Assembly (NCBI RefSeq): GCF_003790525.1
Contig: NZ_CP033635.1
Source: Escherichia coli
Lineage (GTDB): Bacteria > Pseudomonadota > Gammaproteobacteria > Enterobacterales > Enterobacteriaceae
Direction: 5' to 3' (one strand)
DNA: 64,000 nucleotides
In this document: positions 17,664 to 41,216 of the stretch, one piece after another
Numbering within the stretch: position 1 is the first letter of the stretch
Layout: each line of letters opens with the position of its first letter
Made by a program: the position numbers and the translations under genes
The notes under the pieces: model-generated
Told to the model about the DNA's origin: nothing
The model's database searches: none
Seen by the model: only the letters and a program-made list of their open reading frames with translations

Positions 17664-18935
17664 TTACTCAATCAGCTTCAACAGTGGCGACAAGCATAGC
17701 AAAATGCCGTAAAGCAGAATCAGCCAGGCTTTAAATCCGCGAAGTTTTTCCAGTTGTGCGACTTTATAGATCAGGAAAAACGGAATGAGGCACGACACAA
17801 TGCCATATAACGGGCTTCCCAACTGAAAGAACACCAGCACCGATACACGAAACGAAACCCAAATCGTCAACGTAATGACGATAAAAGCGCAGATCGCCAG
17901 AGTCAGCACGCGTGAATTAATTTTCTTGGTATCAATAATTCGGCTTAACAGATTGAGAATAATGCCTTTAATGGCCTCGTGGAAACCGAGATAAATGCCA
18001 AAGAATGCGGTCAGTACGGCAAAGATATTCAGCACCGTAGAGGTGATATGAATGATATGCCCAGGGATCACCTGCGCGGCCAGTGCCAGTGCCGAGATAT
18101 TTTGTTCAAAGGCAGAAACGGCTTCTTCGTGGCTAATTGAGAAGGTAAACGAAAAGGCAAAAAACAGGATCACCGCGATGAGCGTGACATAACTAATTCG
18201 GTGGGTACGCAGCGCGAGCCGGGTTGCCAGTACTTTATCCGCTTCCCGTTTACGATAGGCAATATTCATTGGGTTAAGTACCTGAATAAATACCGCAGAA
18301 AAGAAGCAAAAGGGAATGGTAAGCAGGACATCGCGGAAAAAGACGGAGGCTTGCGGGAAGGCGGTTATATTGGCGAAATTCCAGTGCGGGATCATCGCAA
18401 AACCGAACACGACGATAATCCCTACTTTGACCACCACCATTGGCCCGGAAATCTTAAACAGTAATCGTTCACCACCAGACGCAATTGCCACCAGTACGGC
18501 GAAAATGGCGACTTTATAAAGTAGAGATTGTGAAAGATCGGCATCGGTTAAACCGAAGGTTTTCAGGTACGAGGCGCTGTCGAAAACCACGGAGAGAGAG
18601 TAGATAAAAATCCCGTGGATAATCATCAAAAAGTAGATAACCCCGAGGAAAATTCCCCAGTTCTTCCCCAGGTAATGACTGATAATATCGGTGTAGTCAT
18701 TACAGGAATCGCTTTCAGAAAGGGTTTTTAAATAAATGTCCTGCACTACCCAGGTGGCAGGATAAGCAATGATCGCTGCGGTAATAAATACCCAAATTCC
18801 CTTCAAGCCAATTTGTACTGGCATCAGCACGGTTCCGGCACCAATCGCCATGCCTATGCATAATAAAACCCAGCCGAAGTCGTAGCGTGTAAACGGCAAT
18901 TTCTGATCGTGTTTCGGTAGTGTGTTGTGCTGCAT
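17664..18935 (-). CDS. yhjV: HAAAP-family amino acid transporter-like inner membrane protein YhjV
   Basis: Track ORF 17664-18998 trimmed to [11 protein letters not shown] start (423 aa); polytopic membrane protein. Confidence 0.9.
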
Positions 18936-19296
18936 AAAGTCCTGTCCAGAAAGAAGTCGGCCTCGCAAAAATGAATAAACCCAGTTTCTCTTGCGCAACA
19001 GGTGGAGAAGTCGAATACGCAGTATGTAAAAAATGAGGCAACAGATTCACTGGGGAGGTCGCGAGGAGGCGCAATTCTACAAAATTGCGCATTTCACTAC
19101 CAGTCTGGAGTCAGCCCGGATATGAACTGCAACTATTGCAAATAAAGAAATTAAGCTGGAATGCATCACGCAATGAGGAAGATTGCCGGGTGCTGACGGT
19201 AAAAAGCAATCGTAGAATCAGCGGCAAGCCGGAAAGGTTCCGGTGAGGCGCAATGTTGCGGGGGCTTAATCCCTGGTGGCATTGGTTGCTGGAGAG

Positions 19297-19362
19297 AGAA
19301 AACCCCCGCATATTGCAGGTATGCACCTGACAACATCACGGGGGCTAATCTTGAACCTAGAC
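19297..19362 (-). ncRNA. rdl: Rdl antisense RNA, copy 1 (approximate boundaries)
   Basis: Antisense to the ldr leader; minus-strand transcript would begin GUCUAGGUUCAAGAUUAGCCCCCGUG and end in a GC hairpin plus U-run; position inferred from K-12 ldrD/rdlD organisation. Confidence 0.4.
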
Positions 19363-19410
19363 CACTCAAGAATAGCCGCGAAACGTTGTCATTACAACAC
19401 AGGCGGCTAT

Positions 19411-19518
19411 ATGACGCTCGCAGAACTGGGCATGGCCTTCTGGCATGATTTAGCGGCTCCGGTCATTGCTGGCATTCTTGCCAGCATGATCGTGAACTGG
19501 CTGAATAAGCGGAAGTAA
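19411..19518 (+). CDS. ldr: type I toxin Ldr, 35-aa membrane peptide (copy 1)
   Basis: MTLAELGMAFWHDLAAPVIAGILASMIVNWLNKRK; near-identical to K-12 LdrD. Confidence 0.9.
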   Translation: MTLAELGMAFWHDLAAPVIAGILASMIVNWLNKRK

Positions 19519-19568
19519 CGTGTCAGACGGGCGTCAGGCTGCCGTAATGGCAATTTGCGCCCGGACCA

Positions 19569-19599
19569 GGCCGCAGGGATAAAACTCTGCGGCCTTTTT
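19569..19599 (+). terminator. rho-independent terminator of ldr copy 1
   Basis: GGCCGCAG / CTGCGGCC stem followed by TTTTT. Confidence 0.7.
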
Positions 19600-19779
19600 C
19601 GTAAGAAAAATGCAACGGTTGCAAGCGGATAATATTCTGCGGAATGCGCAGCACAGAGTGAAGACGTGACGGATTCCGGAACAGAAAAACAGTCGTAGAA
19701 TCAGCGGCAAGCCGGAAAGGTTCCGGTGAGGCGCAATGTTGCGGGGGCTTTATCCCTGGTGGCATTGGTTGCTGGAGAG

Positions 19780-19845
19780 AGAAAACCCCCGCACGTTGCA
19801 GGTATGCACCTGACAACACCACGGGGGCTAATCTTGACTCTAGAC
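19780..19845 (-). ncRNA. rdl: Rdl antisense RNA, copy 2 (approximate boundaries)
   Basis: Minus strand would start GUCUAGAGUCAAGAUUAGCCCCCGUGGUG and end …GCGGGGGUUUUCU; candidate promoter TTGTAA-17-TATTCT upstream on the minus strand. Confidence 0.45.
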
Positions 19846-19893
19846 CACTCAAGAATAGCCGCGAAACGTTGTCATTACAACACAGGCGGCTAT

Positions 19894-20001
19894 ATGACGC
19901 TCGCAGAGCTGGGCATGGCCTTCTGGCATGATTTAGCGGCTCCGGTCATTGCTGGCATTCTTGCCAGCATGATCGTGAACTGGCTGAACAAGCGGAAGTA
20001 A
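19894..20001 (+). CDS. ldr: type I toxin Ldr, 35-aa membrane peptide (copy 2)
   Basis: Peptide identical to copy 1. Confidence 0.9.
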   Translation: MTLAELGMAFWHDLAAPVIAGILASMIVNWLNKRK

Positions 20002-20051
20002 CGTGTCAGACGGGCGTCAGGCTGCCGTAATGGCAATTTGCGCCCGGACCA

Positions 20052-20082
20052 GGCCGCAGGGATAAAACTCTGCGGCCTTTTT
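20052..20082 (+). terminator. rho-independent terminator of ldr copy 2
   Basis: same hairpin plus T-run as copy 1. Confidence 0.7.
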
Positions 20083-20263
20083 CGTAAGAAAAATGCAACG
20101 GTTGCAAGCGGATAATATTCTGCGGAATGCGCAGCACAGAGTGAAGAAGTGATGGATTTCGACGAACAAAAATGGCCGTAGAATCAGCGGCAAGCCGGAA
20201 GGGTTCCGGTGAGGCGCAATGTTGCGGGGGGCTTTATCCCTGGTGGCATTGGTTGCTGGAGAG

Positions 20264-20329
20264 AGAAAACCCCCGCACGTTGCAGGTATGCACCTGACAA
20301 CACCACGGGGGCTAATCTTGACTCTAGAC
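20264..20329 (-). ncRNA. rdl: Rdl antisense RNA, copy 3 (approximate boundaries)
   Basis: same position relative to the ldr ORF as in copy 2; sequence essentially identical. Confidence 0.45.
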
Positions 20330-20377
20330 CACTCAAGAATAGCCGCGAAACGTTGTCATTACAACACAGGCGGCTAT

Positions 20378-20485
20378 ATGACGCTCGCAGAGCTGGGCAT
20401 GGCCTTCTGGCATGATTTAGCGGCTCCGGTCATTGCTGGCATTCTTGCCAGTCTGATCGTGAACTGGCTGAACAAGCGGAAGTAA
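20378..20485 (+). CDS. ldr: type I toxin Ldr, 35-aa membrane peptide (copy 3, M26L variant)
   Basis: MTLAELGMAFWHDLAAPVIAGILASLIVNWLNKRK. Confidence 0.9.
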   Translation: MTLAELGMAFWHDLAAPVIAGILASLIVNWLNKRK

Positions 20486-20535
20486 CGTGTCAGACGGGCG
20501 TCAGGCTGCCGTAATGGCAATTTGCGCCCGGATCA

Positions 20536-20566
20536 GGCCGCAGGGATAAAACTCTGCGGCCTTTTT
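20536..20566 (+). terminator. rho-independent terminator of ldr copy 3
   Basis: GGCCGCAG / CTGCGGCC stem plus TTTTT. Confidence 0.7.
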
Positions 20567-20747
20567 CGTAAGAAAAATGCAACGGTTGCAAGCGGATAAT
20601 ATTCTGCGGAATGCGCAGCACAGAGTGAAGACGTGACGGATTCCGGAACAGAAAAACAGTCGTAGAATCAGTGGCAAGCCGGAAGGGTTCCGGTGAGGCG
20701 CAATGTTGCGGGGGGCTTAATCCCTGGTGGCATTGGTTGCTGGAGAG

Positions 20748-20813
20748 AGAAAACCCCCGCACGTTGCAGGTATGCACCTGACAACATCACGGGGGCTAAT
20801 CTTGAACCTTAAC
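20748..20813 (-). ncRNA. rdl: Rdl antisense RNA, copy 4 (approximate; 5' region diverged)
   Basis: Homologous position, but the predicted 5' end/promoter-proximal sequence is CTTGAACCTTAACAACTC instead of CTTGACTCTAGACCACTC. Confidence 0.3.
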
Positions 20814-20861
20814 AACTCAAGAATAGCCGCGAAACGTTGTCATTACAACAGAGGCGGCTAT

Positions 20862-20969
20862 ATGACGCTCGCAGAACTGGGCATGGCCTTCTGGCATGAT
20901 TTAGCGGCTCCGGTCATTGCTGGCATTCTTGCCAGTCTGATCGTGAACTCGCTGAATAAGCGGAAGTAA
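20862..20969 (+). CDS. ldr: type I toxin Ldr, 35-aa peptide (copy 4, M26L and W30S variant)
   Basis: MTLAELGMAFWHDLAAPVIAGILASLIVNSLNKRK. Confidence 0.85.
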   Translation: MTLAELGMAFWHDLAAPVIAGILASLIVNSLNKRK

Positions 20970-21019
20970 CGTGTCATGCGGGCGTCAGGCTGCCGTAATG
21001 GCAAGTTGCGCCCGGACCA

Positions 21020-21050
21020 GGCCGCAGGGGTGAAACTCTGCGGCCTTTTT
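21020..21050. terminator. terminator of ldr copy 4, 5 bp from the bcsG stop codon (possibly bidirectional)
   Basis: GGCCGCAG / CTGCGGCC stem plus TTTTT; bcsG stop codon at 21056-21058 on the opposite strand. Confidence 0.6.
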
Positions 21051-21055
21051 CGTTC

Positions 21056-22735
21056 TTATTGCGGGTAAGGCACCCAGTCGCCGCCGTTCAGGCGAACGTA
21101 CGGTTTATCCTGGTATTGAATAACTACTGCATTTGAGTTCTCGGAGACCGGTGCTGTTTGTGGCAACCCACTGGTGAGTTTTTTCCAGTCAACATTGTCT
21201 TCGGTGAAAATCTTGCCATCAAGAACCCGAACCACCAGATCGGAGATAGCCAGGAAGCTGCTCGGTTGGTCGATGACAATCGGTGCCCCCTGATGTGGTG
21301 CCTTCATGCCGAAGAATTTCACCCCAACGGGGACGTCTGTGATAGACGGGCTAGGGATATCACGTAGGCCAGATACCTGCATTCTGTCGCCCTTCAGCGC
21401 GCCGCCGTGTTCTGGCACCACGACCACCATCACTTTACGACCCGATTTCTCCAGTTCAGTAAAGAAGGCGTCCAGTTCATCAAAGAATTTCTGCGCCCGC
21501 GCTTTGTAATCCGCTGTTTTGCTGACGCCCGGATAATGGTTGCCGTCATGCAGTGGAAGCGTGTTGTAGAACGTGGCACTACGGCTGTTTTTATCTTTTT
21601 CGGTAACGTCCAGCCAGCGGTTAAGCACGGCGGTATCGTCATAAACCGGCGAACCATCAAAGCCCAGCAAAATAACCGGCAGATTTGTTTGATCCATCAA
21701 TTCGGTCTGCATGCCACCATTTTCGCGAACTTCTTTCAAAAAACCGCCGAACTGGCCGTTATGTCCCATCATCAGGTGCTGGGTAAAGCCCAGTTTCGAC
21801 AGGTTATCAAACAGATAGCAGTCATTATTTGCCGGTTGATACAGATTAGTGTGCGAAGTCTGCCCGCAGCTGGCGCGCAGTAAACGGATCGCCGCCGGGC
21901 CACTGTGGGAGGTGGCGGAGTTAAAGTTCTTGAACTCAATATCGAAATGCGACCACAGCGGATGCGACATCAACCCGGCGGCTTCAATATCCGACCAGGA
22001 AAGCGAACAGATATTAATCACCAGTAGTTCAAATGGCTGAGCATCAGCGGGCAGCGAAGACGGGAAGGTCGATTTACGTTTCGCCTCCGCGTTATAGAAA
22101 TTATTCAGCCAGGCGTTAAGGTTCGCCGTTGTTGGCGGTGCAGTTTGTGCGGGCATATCACCCACTACCGGTGCGCCACCCGTCGCCGCAACGGTTGCCG
22201 CTGCGTTACCACCCGTCGTTGTTACAGTGGTCGTCGGTTGACCGGCAGGCCACAAGGAGAAACTTGGTCCCGCCAGGGTAAGTACGTTCAGCCATAGCAG
22301 AATGGCAACCACAAAAACGGTAATGCGAATCCATTGTGACAGGAATAACCAGGCCACTAATAAAACAAAAATGGCCCCAATCATCTGCCAGTTAATAAAG
22401 CGTGTGACAAGGTCGATTAAATAATCGGTACTGAACCCCGCCACCTGCGAACCCTGGCTCATTATGCTTTCCGGGCCAGGCAACCAGGTGTCATGCCAGA
22501 ACAAAGCAAAGCCGATCGGCAGGGCAATCCAGTGGCGTAAGCGATGCAGGCTGTAGCGCGGAATGGGCATCAGCAGAAACGCGGCAAACACCAGATTGAG
22601 GAGCGGATGGAAGTTAAGATATCCTGCCCACAACAGGCCGAACTTAACCAGAAAATAGAAGTTCCAGCCGGAAAGGCCGCGCCAGTATTGCCAGAGGGAA
22701 GAAGGCATGGCGGTATTTTGCGTAAATTGAGTCAT
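21056..22735 (-). CDS. bcsG: cellulose phosphoethanolamine transferase
   Basis: 559-aa ORF; N-terminal TM helices, C-terminal alkaline-phosphatase-like domain; position next to bcsF/bcsE. Confidence 0.93.
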
Positions 22736-22923
22736 TTTTTGGTTGCCCTGGCTTTTTCCGTGCGGCGTAACGTCCCGGCCGGTTTAACATAACGAGGTTT
22801 AGCAAAGAACAAACGTAAGGTGTCGCGAATGCGTCGCAAAGAGTGCCGCGCCAGATAGCCCAGCGGGAAAAATATCAGTGCGCAAACGACAATAATTTCA
22901 ATGATATCGCTGATGGTCATCAT
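22732..22923 (-). CDS. bcsF: cellulose biosynthesis small membrane protein
   Basis: 63-aa single-TM ORF overlapping the bcsG start and bcsE stop by 4 bp each. Confidence 0.85.
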
Positions 22924-24491
22924 GATGAGCGCTCCACAGCATCATCTAACAGTCGCATTGGTTCTGGTATTCGTCGCCAGTGGCGACCATCGTGCTCGGC
23001 ATTGATGACCGGTTTAGAACTTTGCGTTAAAGGCAGCGGCATGCCCCATTGTTCTGGGGCAAGCAGGCGCATCTGCACCAGCTCGGCACTGATTTGATCA
23101 TCTTCAAACCAGACCATACGGTTTGAGAAAATGTCGCCAGTCGGCAATGGGAAAATATGATTCAACGCGGTATCCAGATCGTTAATCCGACAGAATGAGA
23201 GAAACAGCACCAGCCGATTACCGCCAATGGTCATGATATCGCCAGTGCGATTAGGGCGACATAGCGTCAGGGCTTGCTCAACGCGGATACCCGGTACCGG
23301 ACGTAGGGCAACCAGAACGCCTTTACCGTGGGCAGGTAATAGAGGGTTATTCATCATGTTGTTGACGGCATTACAGAACACATCCCACTTCTGGAAACCA
23401 CGCAGTTTGAGCGGCTGGGTCATTGACAGCAAGGTAGTGATATCTTCCGGCACATAGCGACTAAACTTCTGCCCTTGCACGCTTTCGATCATCGTCAGAC
23501 AGCGGGAGAGTGGGGCATTCCATGGGATAACCATATTTGCACCGCAGGCCAATAACAAACGTTCATCGGTGGCGCGCAGGCTAGCGGTATTTTCCCGTAC
23601 GAGGATTTTCATCGCACTACCGCGCTGGCGACGCAGAGTATGAATGCTGCGGGCCAGTGGCTCGATTTGCGCATTTTGTTGTAAAGAAAAGACCACCGTC
23701 GCCGCCTGAGCGGTACGGGCTTCATTAAACAGGACTTCGTTATTGTTGAACAGTTGCCAGTGTTCCGATAGCGGCGGCGCACCTTCAAGTACAGAAACAT
23801 TACTCAGAATGCGTTTTTCGTCGCTGCGTGGTTGGATTTCCGCCTCTTGGTGTTGAACTAATGTCCAGCAACCATTTTGTTGCTGAACGCTAAGCTGCTG
23901 ACGGGCGCTGACCCCTTTTTCGTTGCACCAGAAAGCAATATCCAGCAAATGTTGGTCGCCCTGAAAACGCAAACTGGCAAGACCAAAAAGTGAACGGTAT
24001 TCCTCAAGTAACAATGAAAATTGTTTATCGTTATTATTTCCGGAATTAATTACCAAAAGCGAACAATGGTTTAGCCGGCTCCATTTATTCATTTTATCCA
24101 ACCATGAGCGAAGCCGCTCGGCAGGAATGTTTTGCCATGCGTTATTTGCGCAAACAAGAATAAAAAGGTAATTATGGGGATCAATAGAACACTGCAAATC
24201 ACGGGCCAAATAGTATAGACCTTTTTCATGATTTAGCATTGAAAATAATGTTATTTTTCCCGGCCCTTGAGAATCATCTAATTGAAAGATTTTCGCTGGA
24301 TCGCTGTCCATGCTAATGACCGCGACGTGTGCGGTTTCAGCCTGGGATGCAATTGTTTGATTCGCCAGACTGATAGCATCTTCATGGCGATCGACGTTAA
24401 ACCACCAGACGCCGCCTGCTGGCATATGTCGCAGCTCATCCCATAATGATGAGATACCGATAGAGAATACAGGGTCCACAATGTCCCTCAT
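22920..24491 (-). CDS. bcsE: c-di-GMP-binding cellulose biosynthesis protein (GIL domain)
   Basis: 523-aa ORF recognised as BcsE; divergent from bcsR. Confidence 0.93.
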
Positions 24492-24762
24492 GTCAACATT
24501 TTGTCTGATTATCAGTTTACTAGCGAAAGCTAAGAAATAAACCTACCATTGAAATTAAAACTTATCAGATTTAGCATGTGAATCAATTTAGCAGGTCACA
24601 AGACATGTGATTTTAGTCTTTTCGTTTTTAACTTTTTCTGTTGCGTAACGGAAAGTCAAAAAGTGAGCACATTCCCGTCTCGCCGTAAACAATAAACCGG
24701 CGAAATGCTCACGGTTAGAATTGTCTCATGAACGGTACGGTTATTTCATAGGGATCAAGCAA

Positions 24763-24951
24763 ATGAATAACAATGAACCAGATACTCTGCCTGATCCCGC
24801 GATAGGCTATATCTTCCAGAATGATATTTTGGCGTTAAAGCAGGCATTTTCACTGCCTGATATTGATTATGCCGATATTTCCCAACGCGAACAGTTGGCC
24901 GCGGCATTAAAACGCTGGCCGTTGCTGGCAGAGTTTGCGCAACAAAAGTAG
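24763..24951 (+). CDS. bcsR: cellulose biosynthesis regulator BcsR
   Basis: Track ORF 24721-24951 trimmed to MNNNEPDTLPDP start (62 aa). Confidence 0.85.
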   Translation: MNNNEPDTLPDPAIGYIFQNDILALKQAFSLPDIDYADISQREQLAAALKRWPLLAEFAQQK

Positions 24952-24962
24952 GGGATTGGTGA

Positions 24963-25715
24963 ATGGCCGTACTGGGATTGCAGGGGGTGCGGGGAGGCGT
25001 GGGGACAACAACCATCACCGCCGCATTAGCCTGGTCATTACAAATGTTGGGAGAAAATGTCCTGGTGGTCGATGCCTGCCCGGACAACTTGTTGCGCCTG
25101 TCATTTAACGTTGATTTTACCCACCGTCAGGGCTGGGCCAGAGCTATGCTGGATGGCCAGGACTGGCGTGACGCCGGGTTGCGCTATACCTCGCAGCTCG
25201 ATTTGCTGCCTTTTGGTCAGTTATCCATTGAAGAACAAGAAAATCCACAGCACTGGCAAACCCGGCTGAGCGATATTTGCTCCGGCTTACAGCAACTAAA
25301 AGCCAGCGGGCGTTACCAGTGGATTTTAATTGACTTACCGCGTGATGCCTCACAGATAACCCACCAGCTGCTGAGTTTGTGCGATCACTCGCTGGCAATC
25401 GTCAATGTGGATGCCAACTGCCATATCCGACTGCATCAGCAAGCGCTGCCGGATGGCGCGCATATTTTGATTAATGACTTCCGTATCGGCAGTCAGGTTC
25501 AGGACGATATTTACCAGCTTTGGTTGCAAAGCCAGCGCCGATTACTGCCAATACTCATTCATCGTGATGAAGCGATGGCTCAATGCCTGGCGGCTAAGCA
25601 ACCAGTCGGTGAATACCGCAGTGATGCGCTGGCGGCTGAAGAGATACTGACGCTGGCTAACTGGTGCCTGTTGAACTATTCCGGGCTGAAAACGCCAGTC
25701 GGGAGTGCATCATGA
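24963..25715 (+). CDS. bcsQ: cellulose synthase operon ParA/MinD-like ATPase BcsQ, full length
   Basis: 250-aa uninterrupted ORF; codon 7 is CAG (Gln) in MAVLGLQG…; P-loop-like GVRGGVGTTT. Confidence 0.92.
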   Translation: MAVLGLQGVRGGVGTTTITAALAWSLQMLGENVLVVDACPDNLLRLSFNVDFTHRQGWARAMLDGQDWRDAGLRYTSQLDLLPFGQLSIEEQENPQHWQTRLSDICSGLQQLKASGRYQWILIDLPRDASQITHQLLSLCDHSLAIVNVDANCHIRLHQQALPDGAHILINDFRIGSQVQDDIYQLWLQSQRRLLPILIHRDEAMAQCLAAKQPVGEYRSDALAAEEILTLANWCLLNYSGLKTPVGSAS

Positions 25716-28330
25716 GTATCCTGACCCGGTGGTTGCTTATCCCGCCGGTCAACGCGCGGCTTATCGGGCGTTATCGCGATTATCGTCGTCACGGTGCGTC
25801 GGCTTTCAGCGCGACGCTCGGCTGTTTTTGGTTGATCCTGGCCTGGATTTTTATTCCGCTGGAGCACCCGCGCTGGCAGCGTATTCGCGCAGAACATAAA
25901 AACCTGTATCCGCATATCAACGCCTCGCGTCCGCGTCCGCTGGACCCGGTCCGTTATCTCATTCAAACATGCTGGTTACTGATCGGTACATCGCGCAAAG
26001 AAACGCCGAAACCGCGCAGGCGGACATTTTCAGGTCTGCAGAATATTCGTGGACGTTACCATCAATGGATGAACGAGCTGCCTGAGCGCGTTAGCCATAA
26101 AACACAGCATCTCGATGAGAAAAAAGAACTCGGCCATTTGAGCGCCGGGGCGCGGCGGTTGATCCTCGGTATCATCGTCACCTTCTCGCTGATTCTGGCG
26201 TTAATCTGCGTTACCCAGCCGTTTAACCCGCTGGCGCAGTTTATCTTCCTGATGCTGCTGTGGGGTGTAGCGCTGATCGTACGGCGGATGCCGGGGCGCT
26301 TCTCGGCGCTAATGTTGATTGTGCTGTCGCTGACCGTTTCTTGCCGTTATATCTGGTGGCGCTACACCTCTACGCTGAACTGGGACGATCCGGTCAGCCT
26401 GGTGTGCGGGCTTATTCTGCTGTTCGCCGAAACGTACGCGTGGATTGTGCTGGTGCTCGGTTACTTCCAGGTGGTATGGCCGCTGAATCGTCAGCCGGTG
26501 CCATTGCCGAAAGATATGTCGCTGTGGCCGTCGGTGGATATCTTTGTCCCGACTTACAACGAAGATCTCAACGTGGTGAAAAATACGATTTACGCCTCGC
26601 TGGGTATCGACTGGCCGAAAGACAAGCTGAACATCTGGATCCTCGATGACGGCGGCAGGGAAGAGTTTCGCCAGTTTGCGCAAAACGTGGGGGTGAAATA
26701 TATCGCCCGTACCACTCATGAACATGCGAAAGCGGGCAACATCAACAATGCGCTGAAATATGCCAAAGGCGAGTTCGTGTCGATTTTCGACTGCGACCAC
26801 GTACCAACGCGATCGTTCCTGCAAATGACCATGGGCTGGTTCCTGAAAGAAAAACAACTGGCGATGATGCAGACGCCGCACCACTTCTTCTCACCGGACC
26901 CGTTTGAACGCAACCTGGGACGTTTCCGTAAAACACCGAACGAAGGCACGCTGTTCTATGGTCTGGTGCAGGACGGCAACGATATGTGGGACGCCACCTT
27001 CTTCTGCGGTTCATGTGCGGTGATTCGCCGTAAACCGCTGGATGAAATTGGCGGCATTGCTGTCGAAACGGTAACTGAAGATGCGCATACTTCTCTGCGT
27101 TTGCACCGTCGTGGCTATACCTCCGCGTATATGCGTATTCCGCAGGCGGCGGGGCTGGCGACCGAAAGTCTGTCGGCGCATATCGGTCAGCGTATTCGCT
27201 GGGCGCGCGGGATGGTACAAATCTTCCGTCTCGATAACCCGCTCACCGGTAAAGGGCTGAAGTTTGCTCAGCGGCTATGTTACGTCAACGCCATGTTCCA
27301 CTTCTTGTCGGGCATTCCACGGCTGATCTTCCTGACTGCGCCGCTGGCGTTCCTGCTGCTTCATGCCTACATCATCTATGCGCCAGCGTTGATGATTGCC
27401 CTGTTCGTGCTGCCGCATATGATCCATGCCAGCCTGACCAACTCCAAGATCCAGGGCAAATATCGCCACTCTTTCTGGAGTGAAATCTACGAAACGGTGC
27501 TGGCGTGGTATATCGCACCACCGACGCTGGTGGCGCTGATTAACCCGCACAAAGGCAAATTTAACGTCACCGCCAAAGGTGGACTGGTGGAAGAAGAGTA
27601 CGTCGACTGGGTGATCTCGCGGCCCTACATCTTCCTTGTTCTGCTCAACCTGGTGGGCGTTGCGGTAGGCATCTGGCGCTACTTCTATGGCCCGCCAACC
27701 GAGATGCTCACCGTGGTCGTCAGTATGGTGTGGGTGTTCTACAACCTGATTGTTCTTGGCGGCGCAGTTGCGGTATCGGTAGAAAGCAAACAGGTACGCC
27801 GATCGCACCGCGTGGAGATGACGATGCCCGCGGCAATTGCCCGCGAAGATGGTCACCTCTTTTCGTGTACCGTTCAGGATTTCTCCGACGGTGGTTTGGG
27901 GATCAAGATCAACGGTCAGGCGCAGATTCTGGAAGGGCAGAAAGTGAATCTGTTGCTTAAACGTGGTCAGCAGGAATACGTCTTCCCGACCCAGGTGGCG
28001 CGCGTGATGGGTAATGAAGTTGGGCTGAAATTAATGCCGCTCACCACCCAGCAACATATCGATTTTGTGCAGTGTACGTTTGCCCGTGCGGATACATGGG
28101 CGCTCTGGCAGGACAGCTATCCGGAAGATAAGCCGCTGGAAAGTCTGCTGGATATTCTGAAGCTCGGCTTCCGTGGCTACCGCCATCTGGCGGAGTTTGC
28201 GCCTTCTTCGGTGAAGGGCATATTCCGTGTGCTGACTTCTCTGGTTTCCTGGGTTGTATCGTTTATTCCGCGCCGCCCGGAGCGGAGCGAAACGGCACAA
28301 CCATCGGATCAGGCTTTGGCTCAACAATGA
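25712..28330 (+). CDS. bcsA: cellulose synthase catalytic subunit (GT-2, PilZ domain)
   Basis: Track ORF 25664-28330 trimmed to MSILTRWLL start (872 aa); DCD and TED motifs, QRIRW (QxxRW), C-terminal PilZ region. Confidence 0.95.
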   Translation: MSILTRWLLIPPVNARLIGRYRDYRRHGASAFSATLGCFWLILAWIFIPLEHPRWQRIRAEHKNLYPHINASRPRPLDPVRYLIQTCWLLIGTSRKETPKPRRRTFSGLQNIRGRYHQWMNELPERVSHKTQHLDEKKELGHLSAGARRLILGIIVTFSLILALICVTQPFNPLAQFIFLMLLWGVALIVRRMPGRFSALMLIVLSLTVSCRYIWWRYTSTLNWDDPVSLVCGLILLFAETYAWIVLVLGYFQVVWPLNRQPVPLPKDMSLWPSVDIFVPTYNEDLNVVKNTIYASLGIDWPKDKLNIWILDDGGREEFRQFAQNVGVKYIARTTHEHAKAGNINNALKYAKGEFVSIFDCDHVPTRSFLQMTMGWFLKEKQLAMMQTPHHFFSPDPFERNLGRFRKTPNEGTLFYGLVQDGNDMWDATFFCGSCAVIRRKPLDEIGGIAVETVTEDAHTSLRLHRRGYTSAYMRIPQAAGLATESLSAHIGQRIRWARGMVQIFRLDNPLTGKGLKFAQRLCYVNAMFHFLSGIPRLIFLTAPLAFLLLHAYIIYAPALMIALFVLPHMIHASLTNSKIQGKYRHSFWSEIYETVLAWYIAPPTLVALINPHKGKFNVTAKGGLVEEEYVDWVISRPYIFLVLLNLVGVAVGIWRYFYGPPTEMLTVVVSMVWVFYNLIVLGGAVAVSVESKQVRRSHRVEMTMPAAIAREDGHLFSCTVQDFSDGGLGIKINGQAQILEGQKVNLLLKRGQQEYVFPTQVARVMGNEVGLKLMPLTTQQHIDFVQCTFARADTWALWQDSYPEDKPLESLLDILKLGFRGYRHLAEFAPSSVKGIFRVLTSLVSWVVSFIPRRPERSETAQPSDQALAQQ

Positions 28331-28340
28331 TGATAACGCG

Positions 28341-30680
28341 ATGAAAAGAAAACTATTCTGGATTTGTGCAGTGGCTATGGGGATGAGTGCGTTCCCCTCT
28401 TTCATGACGCAGGCGACGCCAGCAACGCAACCACTGATCAATGCTGAGCCAGCTGTAGCCGCCCAGACGGAACAAAATCCGCAGGTGGGGCAAGTGATGC
28501 CGGGCGTGCAGGGCGCTGATGCCCCCATCGTGGCGCAGAACGGTCCTTCGCGTGATGTGAAGCTGACCTTTGCGCAAATTGCGCCGCCGCCGGGCAGCAT
28601 GGTGCTACGTGGCATTAACCCGAACGGCAGCATTGAGTTTGGTATGCGCAGTGATGAAGTGGTGACGAAGGCGATGCTCAACCTCGAATACACGCCATCG
28701 CCATCGTTACTGCCTGTCCAGTCGCAGTTAAAGGTTTATCTCAATGATGAACTGATGGGCGTGCTGCCAGTGACCAAAGAACAGTTGGGTAAAAAAACGC
28801 TGGCGCAAATGCCCATTAACCCACTGTTTATTACCGACTTCAACCGTGTGCGGCTGGAGTTTGTCGGCCATTATCAGGACGTGTGCGAAAACCCGGCCAG
28901 CACCACGCTTTGGCTGGATGTTGGGCGGAGCAGTGGACTGGATTTGACCTATCAGACCCTGAATGTGAAGAATGACCTGTCACACTTCCCGGTGCCATTC
29001 TTTGACCCGCGTGATAACCGCACCAACACCTTGCCGATGGTCTTTGCGGGTGCGCCGGATGTTGGGCTGCAACAAGCATCTGCCATTGTCGCCTCGTGGT
29101 TTGGTTCGCGTTCTGGCTGGCGTGGGCAGAACTTCCCGGTGCTCTATAACCAACTGCCGGATCGCAATGCCATTGTTTTTGCCACTAATGACAAACGGCC
29201 GGACTTCCTGCGCGATCATCCGGCGGTAAAAGCCCCGGTGATTGAAATGATCAACCATCCGCAGAATCCTTACGTCAAACTGCTGGTGGTCTTTGGTCGT
29301 GACGACAAAGACCTGTTGCAGGCAGCGAAAGGTATCGCTCAGGGTAACATTCTGTTCCGTGGTGAAAGCGTGGTAGTGAATGAAGTGAAACCGCTGCTAC
29401 CGCGTAAGCCGTACGATGCGCCGAACTGGGTGCGTACCGATCGTCCGGTCACCTTTGGTGAACTGAAAACCTATGAAGAACAGTTACAATCCAGCGGTCT
29501 TGAGCCAGCAGCGATTAACGTTTCGCTAAATCTGCCGCCGGATCTCTACCTGATGCGCAGTACCGGCATTGATATGGATATCAACTATCGCTACACCATG
29601 CCGCCGGTGAAAGACAGTTCGCGGATGGATATCAGCCTGAATAACCAGTTCCTGCAATCCTTCAACCTGAGCAGTAAACAGGAGGCGAACCGCCTGCTGC
29701 TGCGGATTCCGGTATTACAAGGTTTGCTGGATGGCAAAACGGATGTCTCTATTCCGGCGCTGAAACTGGGCGCGACCAACCAGTTGCGGTTCGACTTTGA
29801 GTATATGAACCCGATGCCGGGCGGTTCGGTGGATAACTGTATTACCTTCCAGCCGGTGCAGAATCATGTGGTGATTGGTGACGACTCCACCATCGACTTC
29901 TCGAAGTATTACCACTTCATCCCGATGCCGGATCTACGCGCCTTTGCTAACGCGGGCTTCCCGTTCAGCCGGATGGCGGATCTGTCACAAACCATCACCG
30001 TGATGCCGAAAGCGCCTAACGAAGCACAGATGGAAACCTTGCTGAATACCGTTGGCTTTATCGGTGCGCAGACGGGCTTCCCGGCGATTAACCTGACGGT
30101 GACCGATGATGGCAGCACCATTCAGGGCAAAGATGCCGACATCATGATCGTCGGTGGTATCCCGGACAAACTGAAAGACGACAAGCAGATCGACCTGTTG
30201 GTGCAGGCGACCGAAAGCTGGGTGAAAACGCCGATGCGCCAGACCCCATTCCCCGGCATTGTACCGGACGAGAGCGATCGCGCGGCAGAAACTCAGTCAA
30301 CGCTGACCTCTTCCGGTGCGATGGCAGCGGTGATTGGCTTCCAGTCGCCGTATAACGACCAGCGTAGCGTGATTGCGCTGCTGGCAGATAGCCCACGCGG
30401 TTATGAAATGCTTAACGATGCGGTGAACGATAGCGGCAAACGCGCCACCATGTTCGGTTCGGTCGCGGTGATCCGCGAGTCCGGTATCAATAGCCTGCGT
30501 GTTGGCGACGTCTATTACGTTGGCCATCTGCCGTGGTTCGAACGCTTATGGTATGCCCTGGCAAACCATCCGATTCTGCTGGCGGTGCTGGCGGCAATCA
30601 GCGTCGTGCTGCTGGCATGGGTACTGTGGCGTTTGCTGCGTATTATCAGCCGTCGTCGTCTTAACCCGGATAACGAGTAA
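28341..30680 (+). CDS. bcsB: cellulose synthase periplasmic subunit B
   Basis: Track ORF 28254-30680 trimmed to MKRKLFWICAVAMGMSA start (779 aa); signal peptide; C-terminal TM anchor. Confidence 0.95.
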   Translation: MKRKLFWICAVAMGMSAFPSFMTQATPATQPLINAEPAVAAQTEQNPQVGQVMPGVQGADAPIVAQNGPSRDVKLTFAQIAPPPGSMVLRGINPNGSIEFGMRSDEVVTKAMLNLEYTPSPSLLPVQSQLKVYLNDELMGVLPVTKEQLGKKTLAQMPINPLFITDFNRVRLEFVGHYQDVCENPASTTLWLDVGRSSGLDLTYQTLNVKNDLSHFPVPFFDPRDNRTNTLPMVFAGAPDVGLQQASAIVASWFGSRSGWRGQNFPVLYNQLPDRNAIVFATNDKRPDFLRDHPAVKAPVIEMINHPQNPYVKLLVVFGRDDKDLLQAAKGIAQGNILFRGESVVVNEVKPLLPRKPYDAPNWVRTDRPVTFGELKTYEEQLQSSGLEPAAINVSLNLPPDLYLMRSTGIDMDINYRYTMPPVKDSSRMDISLNNQFLQSFNLSSKQEANRLLLRIPVLQGLLDGKTDVSIPALKLGATNQLRFDFEYMNPMPGGSVDNCITFQPVQNHVVIGDDSTIDFSKYYHFIPMPDLRAFANAGFPFSRMADLSQTITVMPKAPNEAQMETLLNTVGFIGAQTGFPAINLTVTDDGSTIQGKDADIMIVGGIPDKLKDDKQIDLLVQATESWVKTPMRQTPFPGIVPDESDRAAETQSTLTSSGAMAAVIGFQSPYNDQRSVIALLADSPRGYEMLNDAVNDSGKRATMFGSVAVIRESGINSLRVGDVYYVGHLPWFERLWYALANHPILLAVLAAISVVLLAWVLWRLLRIISRRRLNPDNE

Positions 30681-30686
30681 TTGAAG

Positions 30687-31793
30687 ATGAATGTGTTGCG
30701 TAGTGGACTCGTGACGATGCTGCTGCTGGCTGCCTTTAGTGTTCAGGCAGCCTGCAACTGGCCTGCCTGGGAGCAATTCAAAAAGGATTACATCAGTCAG
30801 GAAGGGCGCGTCATTGACCCAAGTGACGCGCGTAAAATCACCACTTCCGAAGGGCAAAGTTACGGCATGTTCTTTGCCCTGGCGGCTAACGACCGTGCAG
30901 CTTTCGATAATATTCTCGACTGGACGCAGAACAATCTCGCTCAGGGTTCTTTAAAAGAACGTTTGCCCGCATGGCTGTGGGGCAAGAAAGAGAACAGTAA
31001 GTGGGAAGTGCTGGACAGCAATTCGGCCTCCGATGGTGATGTCTGGATGGCCTGGTCGTTGCTGGAGGCGGGGCGTTTGTGGAAAGAGCAGCGTTATACC
31101 GACATCGGCAGCGCGTTGTTAAAACGTATTGCGCGGGAGGAAGTGGTGACGGTGCCTGGGCTGGGTTCCATGTTGTTGCCGGGCAAAGTGGGATTTGCAG
31201 AGGATAACAGCTGGCGTTTTAACCCCAGCTACCTGCCGCCGACGCTGGCGCAGTATTTCACCCGCTTTGGCGCGCCGTGGACTACGCTGCGCGAAACCAA
31301 TCAACGTTTATTGCTGGAAACCGCCCCGAAAGGCTTTTCGCCAGACTGGGTGCGCTATGAGAAAGACAAAGGCTGGCAGCTAAAAGCCGAAAAAACATTG
31401 ATCAGCAGCTACGACGCGATCCGCGTTTACATGTGGGTAGGCATGATGCCTGACAGCGATCCGCAAAAAGCGCGGATGCTCAACCGGTTTAAACCGATGG
31501 CGACATTCACCGAGAAAAACGGTTATCCGCCGGAAAAAGTGGATGTGGCTACGGGGAAAGCACAGGGTAAAGGACCGGTCGGTTTTTCTGCCGCCATGCT
31601 GCCCTTTTTACAAAACCGCGATGCGCAGGCCGTTCAGCGCCAGCGCGTGGCCGATAACTTTCCCGGCAGCGATGCCTATTACAACTATGTGCTGACCCTG
31701 TTTGGACAAGGCTGGGATCAACACCGTTTCCGCTTCTCGACAAAAGGTGAGTTATTACCTGACTGGGGCCAGGAATGCGCAAATTCACACTAA
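30687..31793 (+). CDS. bcsZ: periplasmic endo-1,4-beta-glucanase (GH8)
   Basis: ATG at 30687 (MNVLRSGLV…), 368 aa with signal peptide; recognised as BcsZ. Confidence 0.94.
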
Positions 31794-34700
31794 ACATATT
31801 CACGCTTTCCCTCGGTCTGGCCGTCATGCCGATGGTCGAGGCAGCACCAACCGCTCAGCAACAGTTGCTGGAGCAAGTTCGGTTAGGCGAAGCGACCCAT
31901 CGTGAAGACCTGGTGCAACAGTCGTTGTATCGTCTGGAACTTATTGATCCGAATAACCCGGACGTCGTTGCCGCCCGTTTCCGTTCTCTGTTACGTCAGG
32001 GCGATATTGATGGCGCGCAAAAACAGCTCGATCGGCTGTCGCAGTTAGCGCCGAGTTCAAATGCGTATAAATCGTCGCGGACCACAATGTTGCTTTCCAC
32101 GCCGGATGGTCGTCAGGCACTGCAACAGGCAAGATTGCAGGCGACTACTGGTCATGCAGAAGAAGCTGTGGCGAGTTACAACAAACTGTTCAACGGTGCG
32201 CCGCCGGAAGGTGACATTGCCGTCGAGTACTGGAGTACGGTGGCGAAAATTCCGGCTCGCCGTGGCGAAGCGATTAATCAGCTAAAACGCATTAATGCGG
32301 ATACGCCGGGCAATACGGGCCTGCAAAACAATCTGGCGCTATTGCTGTTTAGTAGCGATCGCCGTGACGAAGGTTTTGCCGTCCTGGAACAGATGGCGAA
32401 ATCGAACGCCGGGCGCGAAGGGGCCTCTAAAATCTGGTACGGGCAGATTAAAGACATGCCCGTCAGCGATGCCAGTGTGTCGGCACTGAAAAAATATCTC
32501 TCGATCTTTAGCGATGGCGATAGCGTGGCGGCTGCACAATCGCAACTGGCAGAACAGCAAAAACAGCTGGCCGACCCTGCTTTCCGCGCTCGTGCGCAAG
32601 GTTTAGCGGCGGTGGACTCTGGTATGGCGGGTAAAGCCATTCCCGAACTACAACAGGCGGTGCGGGCAAACCCGAAAGACAGTGAGGCTCTGGGGGCGCT
32701 GGGCCAGGCGTATTCTCAGAAAGGCGATCGCGCCAATGCGGTGGCGAATCTGGAAAAAGCCCTCGCACTGGACCCGCACAGCAGCAACAACGACAAATGG
32801 AACAGTCTGCTGAAAGTAAACCGCTACTGGCTGGCAATCCAGCAGGGCGATGCTGCGCTGAAAGCCAATAATCCTGACCGGGCAGAACGCCTGTTCCAGC
32901 AGGCGCGTAATGTCGATAACACCGACAGCTATGCAGTGCTTGGGCTGGGCGATGTGGCGATGGCGCGCAAAGATTACCCCGCCGCTGAACGCTATTATCA
33001 GCAGACCCTGCGTATGGACAGCGGCAACACTAACGCCGTGCGCGGGCTGGCAAATATTTACCGCCAGCAATCGCCAGAAAAAGCTGAAGCGTTTATCGCC
33101 TCGCTCTCTGCCAGTCAGCGGCGTAGCATTGATGATATCGAACGCAGCCTACAAAACGACCGTCTGGCACAGCAGGCAGAGGCACTGGAAAACCAGGGCA
33201 AATGGGGGCAGGCGGCAGCACTTCAGCGGCAACGACTGGCGCTGGATCCCGGCAGCGTATGGATTACTTACCGACTTTCGCAGGATCTCTGGCAGGCCGG
33301 ACAACGCAGCCAGGCTGATACATTAATGCGCAATCTGGCACAGCAGAAGCCGAACGACCCGGAGCAGGTTTACGCTTACGGGCTGTATCTCTCTGGTCAT
33401 GACCAGGACAGAGCGGCGCTGGCGCATATCAACAGCCTGCCGCGCGCGCAGTGGAACAGCAATATTCAGGAACTGGTTAATCGCCTGCAAAGCGATCAGG
33501 TGCTGGAAACCGCTAATCGCCTGCGAGAAAACGGCAAAGAAGCTGAAGCGGAAGCGATGCTGCGCCAGCAACCACCTTCCACGCGCATAGACCTCACGCT
33601 GGCTGACTGGGCGCAACAACGACGTGATTACACCGCCGCTCGCGCTGCATATCAGAATGTCCTGACGCGGGAGCCAACTAACGCCGATGCCATTCTTGGT
33701 CTGACGGAAGTGGATATTGCTGCCGGTGACAAAGCGGCGGCACGTAGCCAGCTGGCGAAACTGCCCGCCACTGATAACGCCTCGCTGAACACTCAGCGGC
33801 GCGTGGCGCTGGCACAGGCGCAGCTTGGCGATACCGCAGCGGCGCAGCAGACGTTTAATAAGTTGATCCCGCAGGCAAAATCTCAGCCACCGTCGATGGA
33901 AAGCGCGATGGTGCTGCGCGACGGTGCGAAGTTTGAAGCGCAGGCGGGCGATCCAACGCAGGCGCTGGAAACCTACAAAGACGCGATGGTCGCATCCGGT
34001 GTGACCACGACGCGTCCGCAGGATAACGACACCTTTACCCAGCTGACCCGTAACGACGAGAAAGATGACTGGCTGAAACGCGGCGTGCGCAGCGATGCAG
34101 CGGACCTCTATCGCCAGCAGGATCTTAACGTCACCCTCGAGCACGATTACTGGGGTTCGAGCGGCACCGGTGGTTACTCCGATCTGAAAGCGCACACCAC
34201 TATGTTGCAGGTGGATGCGCCGTATTCTGACGGGCGGATGTTCTTTCGCAGTGATTTCGTCAATATGAACGTCGGCAGTTTCTCCACTAATGCCGATGGT
34301 AAATGGGATGACAACTGGGGCACCTGTACATTACAGGATTGTAGCGGCAACCGCAGCCAGTCGGATTCCGGTGCCAGCGTGGCGGTCGGCTGGCGAAATG
34401 ACGTCTGGAGCTGGGATATCGGTACCACGCCGATGGGCTTCAACGTGGTGGATGTGGTTGGCGGCATCAGTTACAGCGATGATATCGGGCCGCTGGGTTA
34501 CACCGTTAACGCCCATCGTCGGCCCATCTCCAGTTCTTTGCTGGCCTTTGGTGGGCAAAAAGACTCTCCGAGCAATACCGGGAAAAAATGGGGCGGCGTG
34601 CGTGCCGACGGCGTGGGGCTAAGTCTGAGTTACGATAAAGGTGAAGCAAACGGCGTCTGGGCATCGCTTAGCGGTGATCAGTTAACTGGTAAAAATGTCG

Positions 34701-35248
34701 AAGATAACTGGCGCGTGCGCTGGATGACGGGCTATTACTATAAGGTCATCAACCAGAATAATCGCCGTGTGACCATTGGTCTTAACAATATGATCTGGCA
34801 TTACGACAAAGACCTGAGTGGCTACTCACTTGGTCAGGGCGGTTACTACAGCCCGCAGGAATACCTGTCGTTTGCCATACCGGTGATGTGGCGGGAGCGG
34901 ACGGAAAACTGGTCGTGGGAGCTGGGGGCGTCTGGCTCGTGGTCGCATTCACGCACCAAAACCATGCCGCGTTATCCGCTGATGAATCTGATCCCGACCG
35001 ACTGGCAGGAAGAAGCTGCGCGGCAATCCAACGATGGCGGCAGCAGTCAGGGCTTTGGCTACACGGCGCGGGCATTACTTGAACGACGTGTTACCTCCAA
35101 CTGGTTTGTCGGCACGGCAATTGATATCCAGCAGGCAAAAGATTACGCACCCAGCCATTTCCTGCTCTACGTACGTTATTCCGCCGCCGGATGGCAGGGT
35201 GACATGGATTTACCGCCGCAGCCGCTGATACCTTACGCCGACTGGTAA
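31775..35248 (+). CDS. bcsC: cellulose synthase outer membrane subunit (TPR plus beta-barrel)
   Basis: 1157-aa ORF; signal peptide, long TPR-rich region, C-terminal beta-barrel ending in aromatic W; 19-bp overlap with bcsZ. Confidence 0.95.
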
Positions 35249-40685: not shown

Positions 40686-41216
40686 ATGCGCTACAAAGTC
40701 ACACTGTTCTTGCTGACTATGATTCTCTGCTTAACAGGGTTCTATTCCTGCAACAAGAACTTCCTCTTACTCTGGGATGCCAATAATATGTATGTCAGCA
40801 CAAGAAATAATATCGATAAAGACAAGGTAAAAATAGAATTCGGTATCAGCGTCAACACGATCAACCGAGAGACGGATGCCGAATTATTTACTGACAGAGC
40901 GAAGTATAGAATTATCTTCGATGGTAACCTAAAAAACAGGATGATAAATGAGTACGGCGAAAATGATTTTTTAATTACCTACGATGACCGCTGCTATTTA
41001 TCATTTCGTCAATTTAAAACCAATCGTCGTCATCAACATGACTATTATTTTGACTTCTTTAACAACAATGGGAATGTCTTTGTCACAGTCGAAATCAAAG
41101 GCGAGAACCCACTTAAATTTACGCGTAGTTTAAATGATATGCGTCAGCAGTTTTCACCAACTCGTGAGGATAGCCCTTCTCACTCCTGCAAGGTTATTTC
41201 TTCAGATCCTTCTTAA
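40686..41216 (+). CDS. hypothetical protein, AT-rich gene, N-terminal signal/anchor-like hydrophobic segment
   Basis: 176-aa ORF with AAAGGA RBS 5 nt upstream of ATG; markedly AT-rich by eye; N-terminus MRYKVTLFLLTMILCLTGFYSC; no K-12 counterpart recalled. Confidence 0.6.
   Translation: MRYKVTLFLLTMILCLTGFYSCNKNFLLLWDANNMYVSTRNNIDKDKVKIEFGISVNTINRETDAELFTDRAKYRIIFDGNLKNRMINEYGENDFLITYDDRCYLSFRQFKTNRRHQHDYYFDFFNNNGNVFVTVEIKGENPLKFTRSLNDMRQQFSPTREDSPSHSCKVISSDPS

Follow-up and report, generated by a model that had tools for sequence, protein, structure and literature searches.

The bcs locus of this Escherichia coli strain raises the question of whether an intact bcsQ gene, which K-12 lacks, is enough to predict that cellulose is made and that it is modified with phosphoethanolamine (pEtN). 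The exceptional state of bcsQ in K-12 has stood in the textbooks since 2013. The original prediction, which was made from a stretch of DNA of 64 kb (hereafter the window), held that bcsQ is intact and that the locus appears functional, unlike that of K-12, and expected pEtN-cellulose to be produced. The reading that we prefer, to which we assign a probability of about 0.85, is that the window carries a wild-type bcsQ allele in a complete, annotated E. coli-type locus that would be competent for cellulose synthesis once cyclic di-GMP (c-di-GMP) is supplied, with pEtN modification being uncertain.

The bcsQ gene (positions 24963 to 25715, plus strand) begins with ATG and continues uninterrupted for 250 codons plus the stop, as seen from the open reading frame and its translation, and its first codons read ATG GCC GTA CTG GGA TTG CAG GGG, exactly as had been quoted. 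The 250-residue product, a SIMIBI/MinD-like ATPase subunit of the cellulose synthase complex (RefSeq WP_000279524.1), scored 540 bits against the NCBIfam equivalog NF007460 (cut-off 399), with residues 1–250 aligned to profile positions 1–250, as well as 292.7 bits against TIGR03371 (cut-off 157.85) and 379.3 bits against the Pfam model PF06564 (CBP_BcsQ). It has the P-loop characteristic of the BcsQ family, GVRGGVGTTT, at residues 8–17 and thus downstream of codon 6, and it occupies the operon position of the family, with bcsR followed by bcsQ and then by bcsA. Over residues 8–55, models of ParA, MinD and ArsA also matched, weakly and below threshold.

BcsQ of E. coli 1094, solved in BcsR2Q2 and BcsERQ complexes by crystallography (PDB 6YAR, 6YB3, 6YB5, 6YBB and 6YBU) and by cryo-EM (9FNN, 9FP0 and 9FP2), is near-identical to the protein encoded in the window. 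All 250 residues aligned to the crystallised sequence (PDB 6YBU/6YAR; E = 3e-167), the P-loop stretch was identical and R156 was kept, and the four substitutions (D173 for N, I197 for M, Q207 for E and A249 for K) all fell outside the P-loop. The equivalog score and this near-identity establish that 24963–25715 is not a chance open reading frame. BcsQ has been reported to be essential for cellulose secretion (PMC8892547). From that report and from the near-identity to the proteins in PDB 6YB3/6YBU, we infer that BcsQ of the window would bind ATP, assemble into BcsR2Q2 and serve in cellulose secretion. The allele is the ancestral, wild-type one, and the gene, already known, is well characterised and annotated in RefSeq.

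We compared the gene base by base with bcsQ of K-12 MG1655 (NC_000913.3), where b3534 is annotated as a pseudogene. Another record, NZ_CP009685.1, was discarded as a K-12 comparator; its bcsG and bcsE contain several frameshifts that are absent from NC_000913.3, and these were treated as assembly errors. Both bcsQ genes are 753 nucleotides long and differ at 16 nucleotides and in three codons, K-12 having M197 and E207 where the window has I197 and Q207. The sole disabling difference is at codon 6 (24978 to 24980, plus strand), which is TTG (Leu) in the window and a TAG stop in the codon-by-codon alignment with NC_000913.3. The premature TAG of K-12 is therefore at codon 6 as stated, in agreement with the literature, but its counterpart had been misplaced by one codon: the CAG (Gln) that was put forward is codon 7, identical in both strains. 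The K-12-type lesion, TAG at codon 6 through 17 T>A, is thus absent from the window. K-12 is cellulose-negative through this change, a TTG/TAG SNP that goes back to the K-12 ancestor (PMC5944007; PMC5635695), and AR3110, a K-12 derivative in which codon 6 was changed back from TAG to TTG and which is hence in the same state as the window, regains cellulose (PMC7397504; PMC5014196; PMC5635695).

How the K-12 stop exerts its effect bears on the wording of the original prediction, which ascribed it to polarity on bcsA and bcsB. The bcsQ stop and the bcsA start overlap in an ATGA at 25712–25715, as read from the sequence. K-12 has bcsQ at the same position with the same ATGA overlap, and its flanking genes are identical in length to those of the window. 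Such an arrangement fits translational coupling of bcsQ and bcsA, and because the two codons overlap, a stop that comes very early in bcsQ could have a polar effect on bcsA. The K-12 stop at codon 6 would then not only eliminate BcsQ but also cut bcsA translation off from ribosomes arriving from upstream, and neither effect applies to the window. Polarity is one of two explanations on offer. BcsQ itself is essential (PMC8892547), and PMC5944007 leaves open whether the defect comes from the loss of BcsQ, from polarity or from both.

Allele frequencies were counted with 55-mers centred on the SNP, in which a mismatch at the centre deprives megablast of any 28-base seed, in a set of 5,426 complete E. 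coli genomes. The TTG allele was present in at least 4,898 of these and the TAG allele in 349. When the TAG rows were sampled evenly, 60 out of 60 were K-12-type records of about 4.5–4.7 Mb, mostly named laboratory derivatives (MG1655, W3110-type, DH5alpha, BW25113, DH1, HB101, MC4100, J53 and XL1-Blue). An intact codon 6 is the E. coli default, present in about nine in ten genomes, and K-12 is the exception. Hence the K-12 lesion is indeed missing from the window, yet its absence does not set the strain apart: an intact bcsQ is ordinary, the normal and already annotated condition of the species, and K-12 is a poor reference for what is unusual.

An intact codon 6 does not amount to an intact locus. 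Among five bcs loci fetched from other lineages, three were broken, by an IS4 element in bcsG (IAI39), a frameshift in bcsG (N39) or a stop at codon 131 of bcsQ (2014C-3599); the IS4 insertion in bcsG was found in IAI39 and three further phylogroup F relatives. Previous work has shown that bcs inactivation is convergent in ST95 and other invasive clones, with alleles in ExPEC, Shigella and Salmonella, and that bcsG loss of function recurs in ExPEC and Salmonella ST313 (PMC10881479). A bcsE frameshift in O104:H4 (PMC4287979) and a bcsE stop in ATCC 8739 (PMC5944007) have also been described. A fully intact bcs locus is consequently the majority state and not a universal one. Compared with these natural alleles, the window has the same locus, a known hotspot of pathoadaptive inactivation, free of nonsense, frameshift or IS lesions; its only candidate lesion is a missense change in BcsG, Y277H, of a kind that falls outside the stop and frameshift surveys of PMC10881479.

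The remaining genes of the locus were examined individually. The operon bcsRQABZC, on the plus strand, is opened by bcsR (yhjR; 24763 to 24951), which encodes 62 residues, scored 75.8 bits against NF040717 (cut-off 46) and differs from K-12 at the amino acid level only by V23L. Downstream of bcsQ lie bcsA (25712 to 28330), encoding the 872-residue catalytic GT2 cellulose synthase with a C-terminal PilZ domain (NF008558, 1792.8 bits; Pfam GT2 and PilZ); bcsB (28341 to 30680), for the periplasmic subunit of 779 residues (NF008325, 1385.4 bits); bcsZ (30687 to 31793), for a periplasmic endoglucanase of 368 residues, the K-12 length (NF008305, 595.6 bits); and bcsC (31775 to 35248), for a 1157-residue protein with TPR repeats and an outer-membrane channel (NF008520, 2199.8 bits). 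On the minus strand are bcsE (22920 to 24491; 523 residues), encoding a c-di-GMP-binding regulator with an I-site RTGD at residue 415 (NF011619, 1183.6 bits); bcsF (22732 to 22923; 63 residues), for a membrane anchor, without a single nucleotide difference from K-12 (TIGR03493, 116.4 bits); and bcsG (21056 to 22735; 559 residues), for the phosphoethanolamine transferase, which was aligned with PDB 9B8V/6PCZ (TIGR03368, 814.6 bits). Adjoining the operon on the plus strand, pdeK (hmsP; 35330 to 37318) encodes an intact c-di-GMP phosphodiesterase of 662 residues (NF008807, 781.1 bits; cut-off 733), reported to act with DgcC at the synthase (PMC7397504).

All nine Bcs proteins exceeded their NCBIfam equivalog cut-offs over essentially their full length. 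Apart from bcsQ, the eight bcs genes and pdeK, the latter with a TTG start, agree exactly with K-12 in length and start codon and contain no internal stop, which bears out the earlier description of these bcs genes as full length; alignment with K-12, the check by which a stop or frameshift elsewhere in the bcs genes was to be sought, revealed none. The nine genes stand in the canonical divergent order of a type II system, bcsRQABZC against bcsEFG. BcsA has the DCD, TED and QRIRW motifs that had been noted (DCD360, TED455, QRIRW493), together with HAKAGN338 and FFCGS430, and its PilZ domain carries RRSHR696 and DFSDGG723. In BcsG, the defining residues are the zinc ligands Cys243, Glu442 and His443, the nucleophile Ser278, His396, Arg458 and the disulfide Cys290–Cys306 (PMC8892547; PMC10525099), and all of them (C243, S278, C290, C306, H396, E442, H443 and R458) are kept. 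The divergent intergenic region between bcsE and bcsR (24492 to 24762; 271 bp), which should hold the promoters, differs from K-12 by four SNPs and a 1-nt indel in the pairwise alignment and contains no insertion element; a promoter and terminator scan of this region returned two promoter-like sites, close to the 1.2 that shuffled sequences gave on average. Relative to the E. coli type II Bcs system, the maker of pEtN-cellulose (Thongsomboon 2018; PMC11379886), the window has all nine genes in divergent order with pdeK adjacent and shares the residues of the catalytic centres, the PilZ domain, the I-site and the zinc site, but its BcsG has His277 in place of Tyr.

Over bcsRQ, the window shows 100% identity to E. 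coli SMS-3-5 (NC_010498.1), whose RefSeq record annotates every gene treated here. SMS-3-5, a member of phylogroup F (PMC5635171), serves as the reference genome for ST354 (PMC9174282), and this strain or an isolate almost identical to it is the source of the window. Over the whole 64 kb, the window differs from it by two synonymous SNPs, at 30248 (bcsB Pro636, CCG>CCA, private to the window) and 51872 (rcdB Ala188, GCT>GCA), and by one ldr/rdl repeat unit fewer, the array (LDR) having four units here and five in SMS-3-5, with a unit of about 484 bp. No exact match to the four-unit array was found among complete genomes, the best reaching 99.5%. The only substitutions private to the lineage in comparison with a panel of six other lineages were BcsG Y277H, BcsQ M197I, BcsC A478G and BcsC R756Q, where "private" is a weak statement given a panel of six lineages.

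Whether such a genotype yields cellulose depends on more than the locus. Cellulose activation needs RpoS, CsgD, DgcC and c-di-GMP. From the literature, BcsQ forms an ATP-bound BcsR2Q2 complex, which BcsE and BcsF bring to the PilZ domain of BcsA. The locus of the window should be able to polymerise cellulose and to export it once c-di-GMP arrives through the RpoS/CsgD/DgcC pathway. The c-di-GMP must come specifically from DgcC (PMC7397504), under the control of RpoS and CsgD (PMC5014196). The genes csgD, dgcC and rpoS are absent from the annotation of the 64-kb window, and we found no cellulose or rdar phenotype of SMS-3-5 in the literature. A complete set of intact reading frames is a necessary condition for cellulose and not a prediction of it, because BL21-Gold and H10407 possess all bcs genes and nevertheless give no calcofluor signal (PMC5944007). 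On the same grounds, the claim that the locus appears functional stands in so far as the genotype looks competent for cellulose, and the word "functional" goes beyond the evidence.

These two strains also illustrate how the locus could be intact but silent, if regulation outside the window (rpoS, csgD, mlrA, dgcC or an excess of phosphodiesterase) blocked the activation of BcsA by c-di-GMP. The specific requirement for DgcC (PMC7397504) and the wide variation of rdar and cellulose phenotypes among isolates, for example where rcsB is mutated or mlrA carries a prophage (PMC5635171), argue in the same direction. No regulatory defect was seen within the window, however, where pdeK is intact and pdeH is annotated as intact. 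Moreover, the bcsE–bcsR region is only the few changes listed above away from that of K-12, which is cellulose-positive once repaired, and this suggests that the region is sufficient. Most natural isolates with intact loci make cellulose at 28 °C. We therefore regard a silent locus as rather unlikely, and cellulose synthesis as plausible from the gene content.

The locus could also fail in a different way, if another missense change private to the lineage (BcsQ M197I, BcsC A478G or BcsC R756Q) crippled the complex. All three are absent from the six other lineages compared, and missense changes in BcsB, BcsC and BcsQ have been speculated to lie behind the cellulose-negative state of BL21 and H10407 (PMC5944007). 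The substitutions are conservative, though (Met/Ile, Ala/Gly and Arg/Gln), the protein scores exceed the equivalog cut-offs by a wide margin, and the six-lineage panel gives "private" little weight. To our knowledge, none of the three lies at a functional residue. That any of them leaves the locus non-functional is very improbable, and a locus competent for cellulose remains our reading with respect to these changes.

The fourth private change concerns the modification of cellulose and not its synthesis. Codon 277 of bcsG (21905 to 21907, minus strand) is CAC (His) in the window and TAC (Tyr) in K-12; all solved E. coli BcsG structures that were aligned likewise have Tyr. The residue directly precedes Ser278, the catalytic nucleophile (PMC11379886), so that the Tyr277 expected in the active-site pocket of an active BcsG is replaced by His. 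Among the 5,426 complete genomes, 25 (0.5%) carried the His277 allele and 5,324 the Tyr277 allele. The 25 genomes are SMS-3-5 and 24 others, from humans, dogs, chickens, a pangolin and surface or waste water. In 24 of the 25, a rare three-gene island located 19 kb away is also present at 99% identity or more, and the same 24 match the 14.3-kb bcs locus as a single ungapped piece with a handful of SNPs. Y277H is therefore probably a single event that has become fixed in a young clone. It is the one lead that the locus offers, being fixed in a lineage, rare, and placed at a residue reported to be essential.

Tyr277 has been reported as functionally important and specific to BcsG (PMC8892547; PMC10525099). 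A Y277A variant fails to keep the pellicle phenotype of AR3110 and is non-functional in vivo, according to PMC10525099, which relays Anderson 2020. In order to place the His allele within the family, the window protein was aligned with 150 representatives, one per 50%-identity cluster, of which 147 had a residue at column 277. Tyr occupied this column in 139 of the 147 and His in six, besides the window; the single Leu and the single Ile were in aberrant or fragmentary sequences. The six His277 homologues are distant, with about 33% identity to E. coli BcsG and ranks 109–143. All non-Tyr representatives were at rank 109 or lower except for one aberrant match (P0069), and the closer aligned homologues had Tyr. 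The His-bearing proteins, 28–45% identical among themselves, keep every other catalytic residue, and because six such diverged proteins do so, the BcsG fold is judged, from the alignment, to tolerate His277. That cellulose modification tolerates it as well does not follow. Membership of the His277 homologues in classic bcs operons was considered and rejected: two could be placed on contigs and neither lay in one, the neighbours being HD-GYP and GGDEF genes in one case and DUF3131 and GT2 genes in the other. Since these two stand outside classic bcs operons, the acceptor substrate of the distant His277 homologues may differ.

In view of this near-invariant Tyr and of the non-functional Y277A variant, pEtN-cellulose does not follow from intact reading frames, and that part of the original prediction is in doubt. 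A rival reading would be that cellulose is made but that Y277H weakens or abolishes pEtN transfer, with the strain and the ST354 clone secreting un-modified or under-modified cellulose. The position next to Ser278, the loss of the AR3110 pellicle phenotype in Y277A as conveyed in PMC10525099, the 25 His against 5,324 Tyr alleles in 5,426 genomes and, P0069 apart, the confinement of non-Tyr residues to family ranks of 109 or lower all speak for it. So do the phylogroup F relatives with IS4 in bcsG (IAI39 and three more) and the recurrent loss of bcsG in ExPEC and Salmonella ST313 (PMC10881479). His, on the other hand, is the one residue besides Tyr that recurs naturally at this position, being present in six distant homologues whose catalytic residues are otherwise kept, and it retains a ring and hydrogen-bonding capacity, unlike the Ala that was assayed. 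All 24 listed genomes of the lineage also keep the locus ungapped, in a clone too young for decay to show.

Weighing these points, we find it possible but doubtful that Y277H substantially impairs pEtN transfer, and pEtN modification probably persists, at least partly. Unmodified cellulose is still secreted when BcsG is catalytically dead (S278A; PMC11379886), and the outcome to be expected from Y277H would therefore be altered and not absent cellulose. It is likewise only a tentative proposal that the fixed Y277H has altered or abolished pEtN transfer throughout the ST354 clone, so as to give un- or under-modified cellulose by a missense route to the convergent attenuation known from invasive Enterobacteriaceae. 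Under that proposal, an attenuation of pEtN-cellulose that is reached elsewhere in ExPEC through frameshifts and IS insertions might here have been reached through a single missense change, which we consider less probable than not having been so reached.

Should Y277H change pEtN decoration, matrix mechanics, the Congo-red phenotype and host interaction would be altered in a globally spread ExPEC clone. Missense variants would then belong in surveys of cellulose attenuation, where counts of stops, frameshifts and IS elements would miss them. As a side observation on the island that accompanies the His277 allele, family scans of its three proteins returned matches to DUF3142 and sub-threshold TPR matches only.

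Codon 277 of bcsG (window 21905-21907, minus strand) specifies histidine at a position where tyrosine is near-invariant and which is immediately followed by the nucleophile, Ser278. Among 5,426 complete E. coli genomes, His277 was found in 25 and Tyr277 in 5,324. A Y277A variant of BcsG is reported to be non-functional (Anderson 2020, as cited in PMC10525099), and His277 may affect the phosphoethanolamine decoration of cellulose.

Nearly all genomes with this allele (24/25) also carried a three-gene island located between yhjJ and kdgK (window 40686-44428), two genes that are neighbours in K-12 but are separated by the island in the window. At least 80% of the island was present in only 30 of the 5,426 genomes, and 24 of these 30 carriers showed an identity of at least 99%. 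The first gene (40686-41216, plus strand) encodes a 176-aa protein with a lipoprotein-like N-terminus, for which no family match was obtained. The other two genes lie on the minus strand. The product of one (41194-43236) is 680 aa long and gave TPR hits that stayed below threshold; the other (43223-44428) encodes a DUF3142 protein of 401 aa, which weakly matches the DUF3142 structure PDB 8Y6T (E = 1e-5). These three genes are probably the adjacent uncharacterised envelope genes mentioned in the original prediction.

Between yhjV and bcsG, the window contains a tandem array of four LDR units (19158-21010) with a period of about 484 bp, each unit comprising an ldr toxin and its rdl antisense, a type I toxin-antitoxin system. 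LDR copy number varied between strains, with five units in the SMS-3-5 RefSeq record, in CUVET17-1418 and in E200086, four in IAI39, three in uk_P46212, two in 2014C-3599 and one each in K-12 and N39. No exact match to the array of the window was found among complete genomes, the top match being 99.5%. Besides the LDR unit, the window differed from the SMS-3-5 record (NC_010498.1) at only two positions, 30248 (bcsB Pro636, CCG>CCA) and 51872 (rcdB Ala188, GCT>GCA), both synonymous third-position changes. Therefore, the window is not the deposited record itself but comes either from an isolate almost identical to SMS-3-5 or from a resequencing of that strain.

Upstream of bcsQ, the bcsR coding sequence contains a hairpin that resembles a terminator and leads into a T-rich tail (window 24841-24859, plus strand). 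A review of Bcs systems mentions the hypothesis that the bcsRQABZC mRNA may carry intrinsic terminators towards its 5' end, tied to interactions between BcsE, S10 and NusB.

K-12 bcsQ itself is annotated inconsistently. In CP009685 (K-12 locus L002, 4196-4924), PGAP calls a 242-aa CDS starting with GTG at codon 9, downstream of the TAG, whereas NC_000913.3 (MG1655 locus L003, 15234-15986) labels bcsQ a pseudogene. Judged by feature labels, PGAP seems to make the same call in other K-12-derived records; name-based surveys would therefore overlook the K-12 defect.

Natural bcs disruptions were common within a small arbitrary panel. bcsG carried an IS4 insertion in IAI39 (18757-21875 of its locus, L006), also present in three further relatives (locus identity 99.2%), and a frameshift in the CSF isolate N39 (L009, 7357-9035). 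In 2014C-3599 (L010, 11265-12017), bcsQ was interrupted by a stop at codon 131, which differs from the K-12 lesion.
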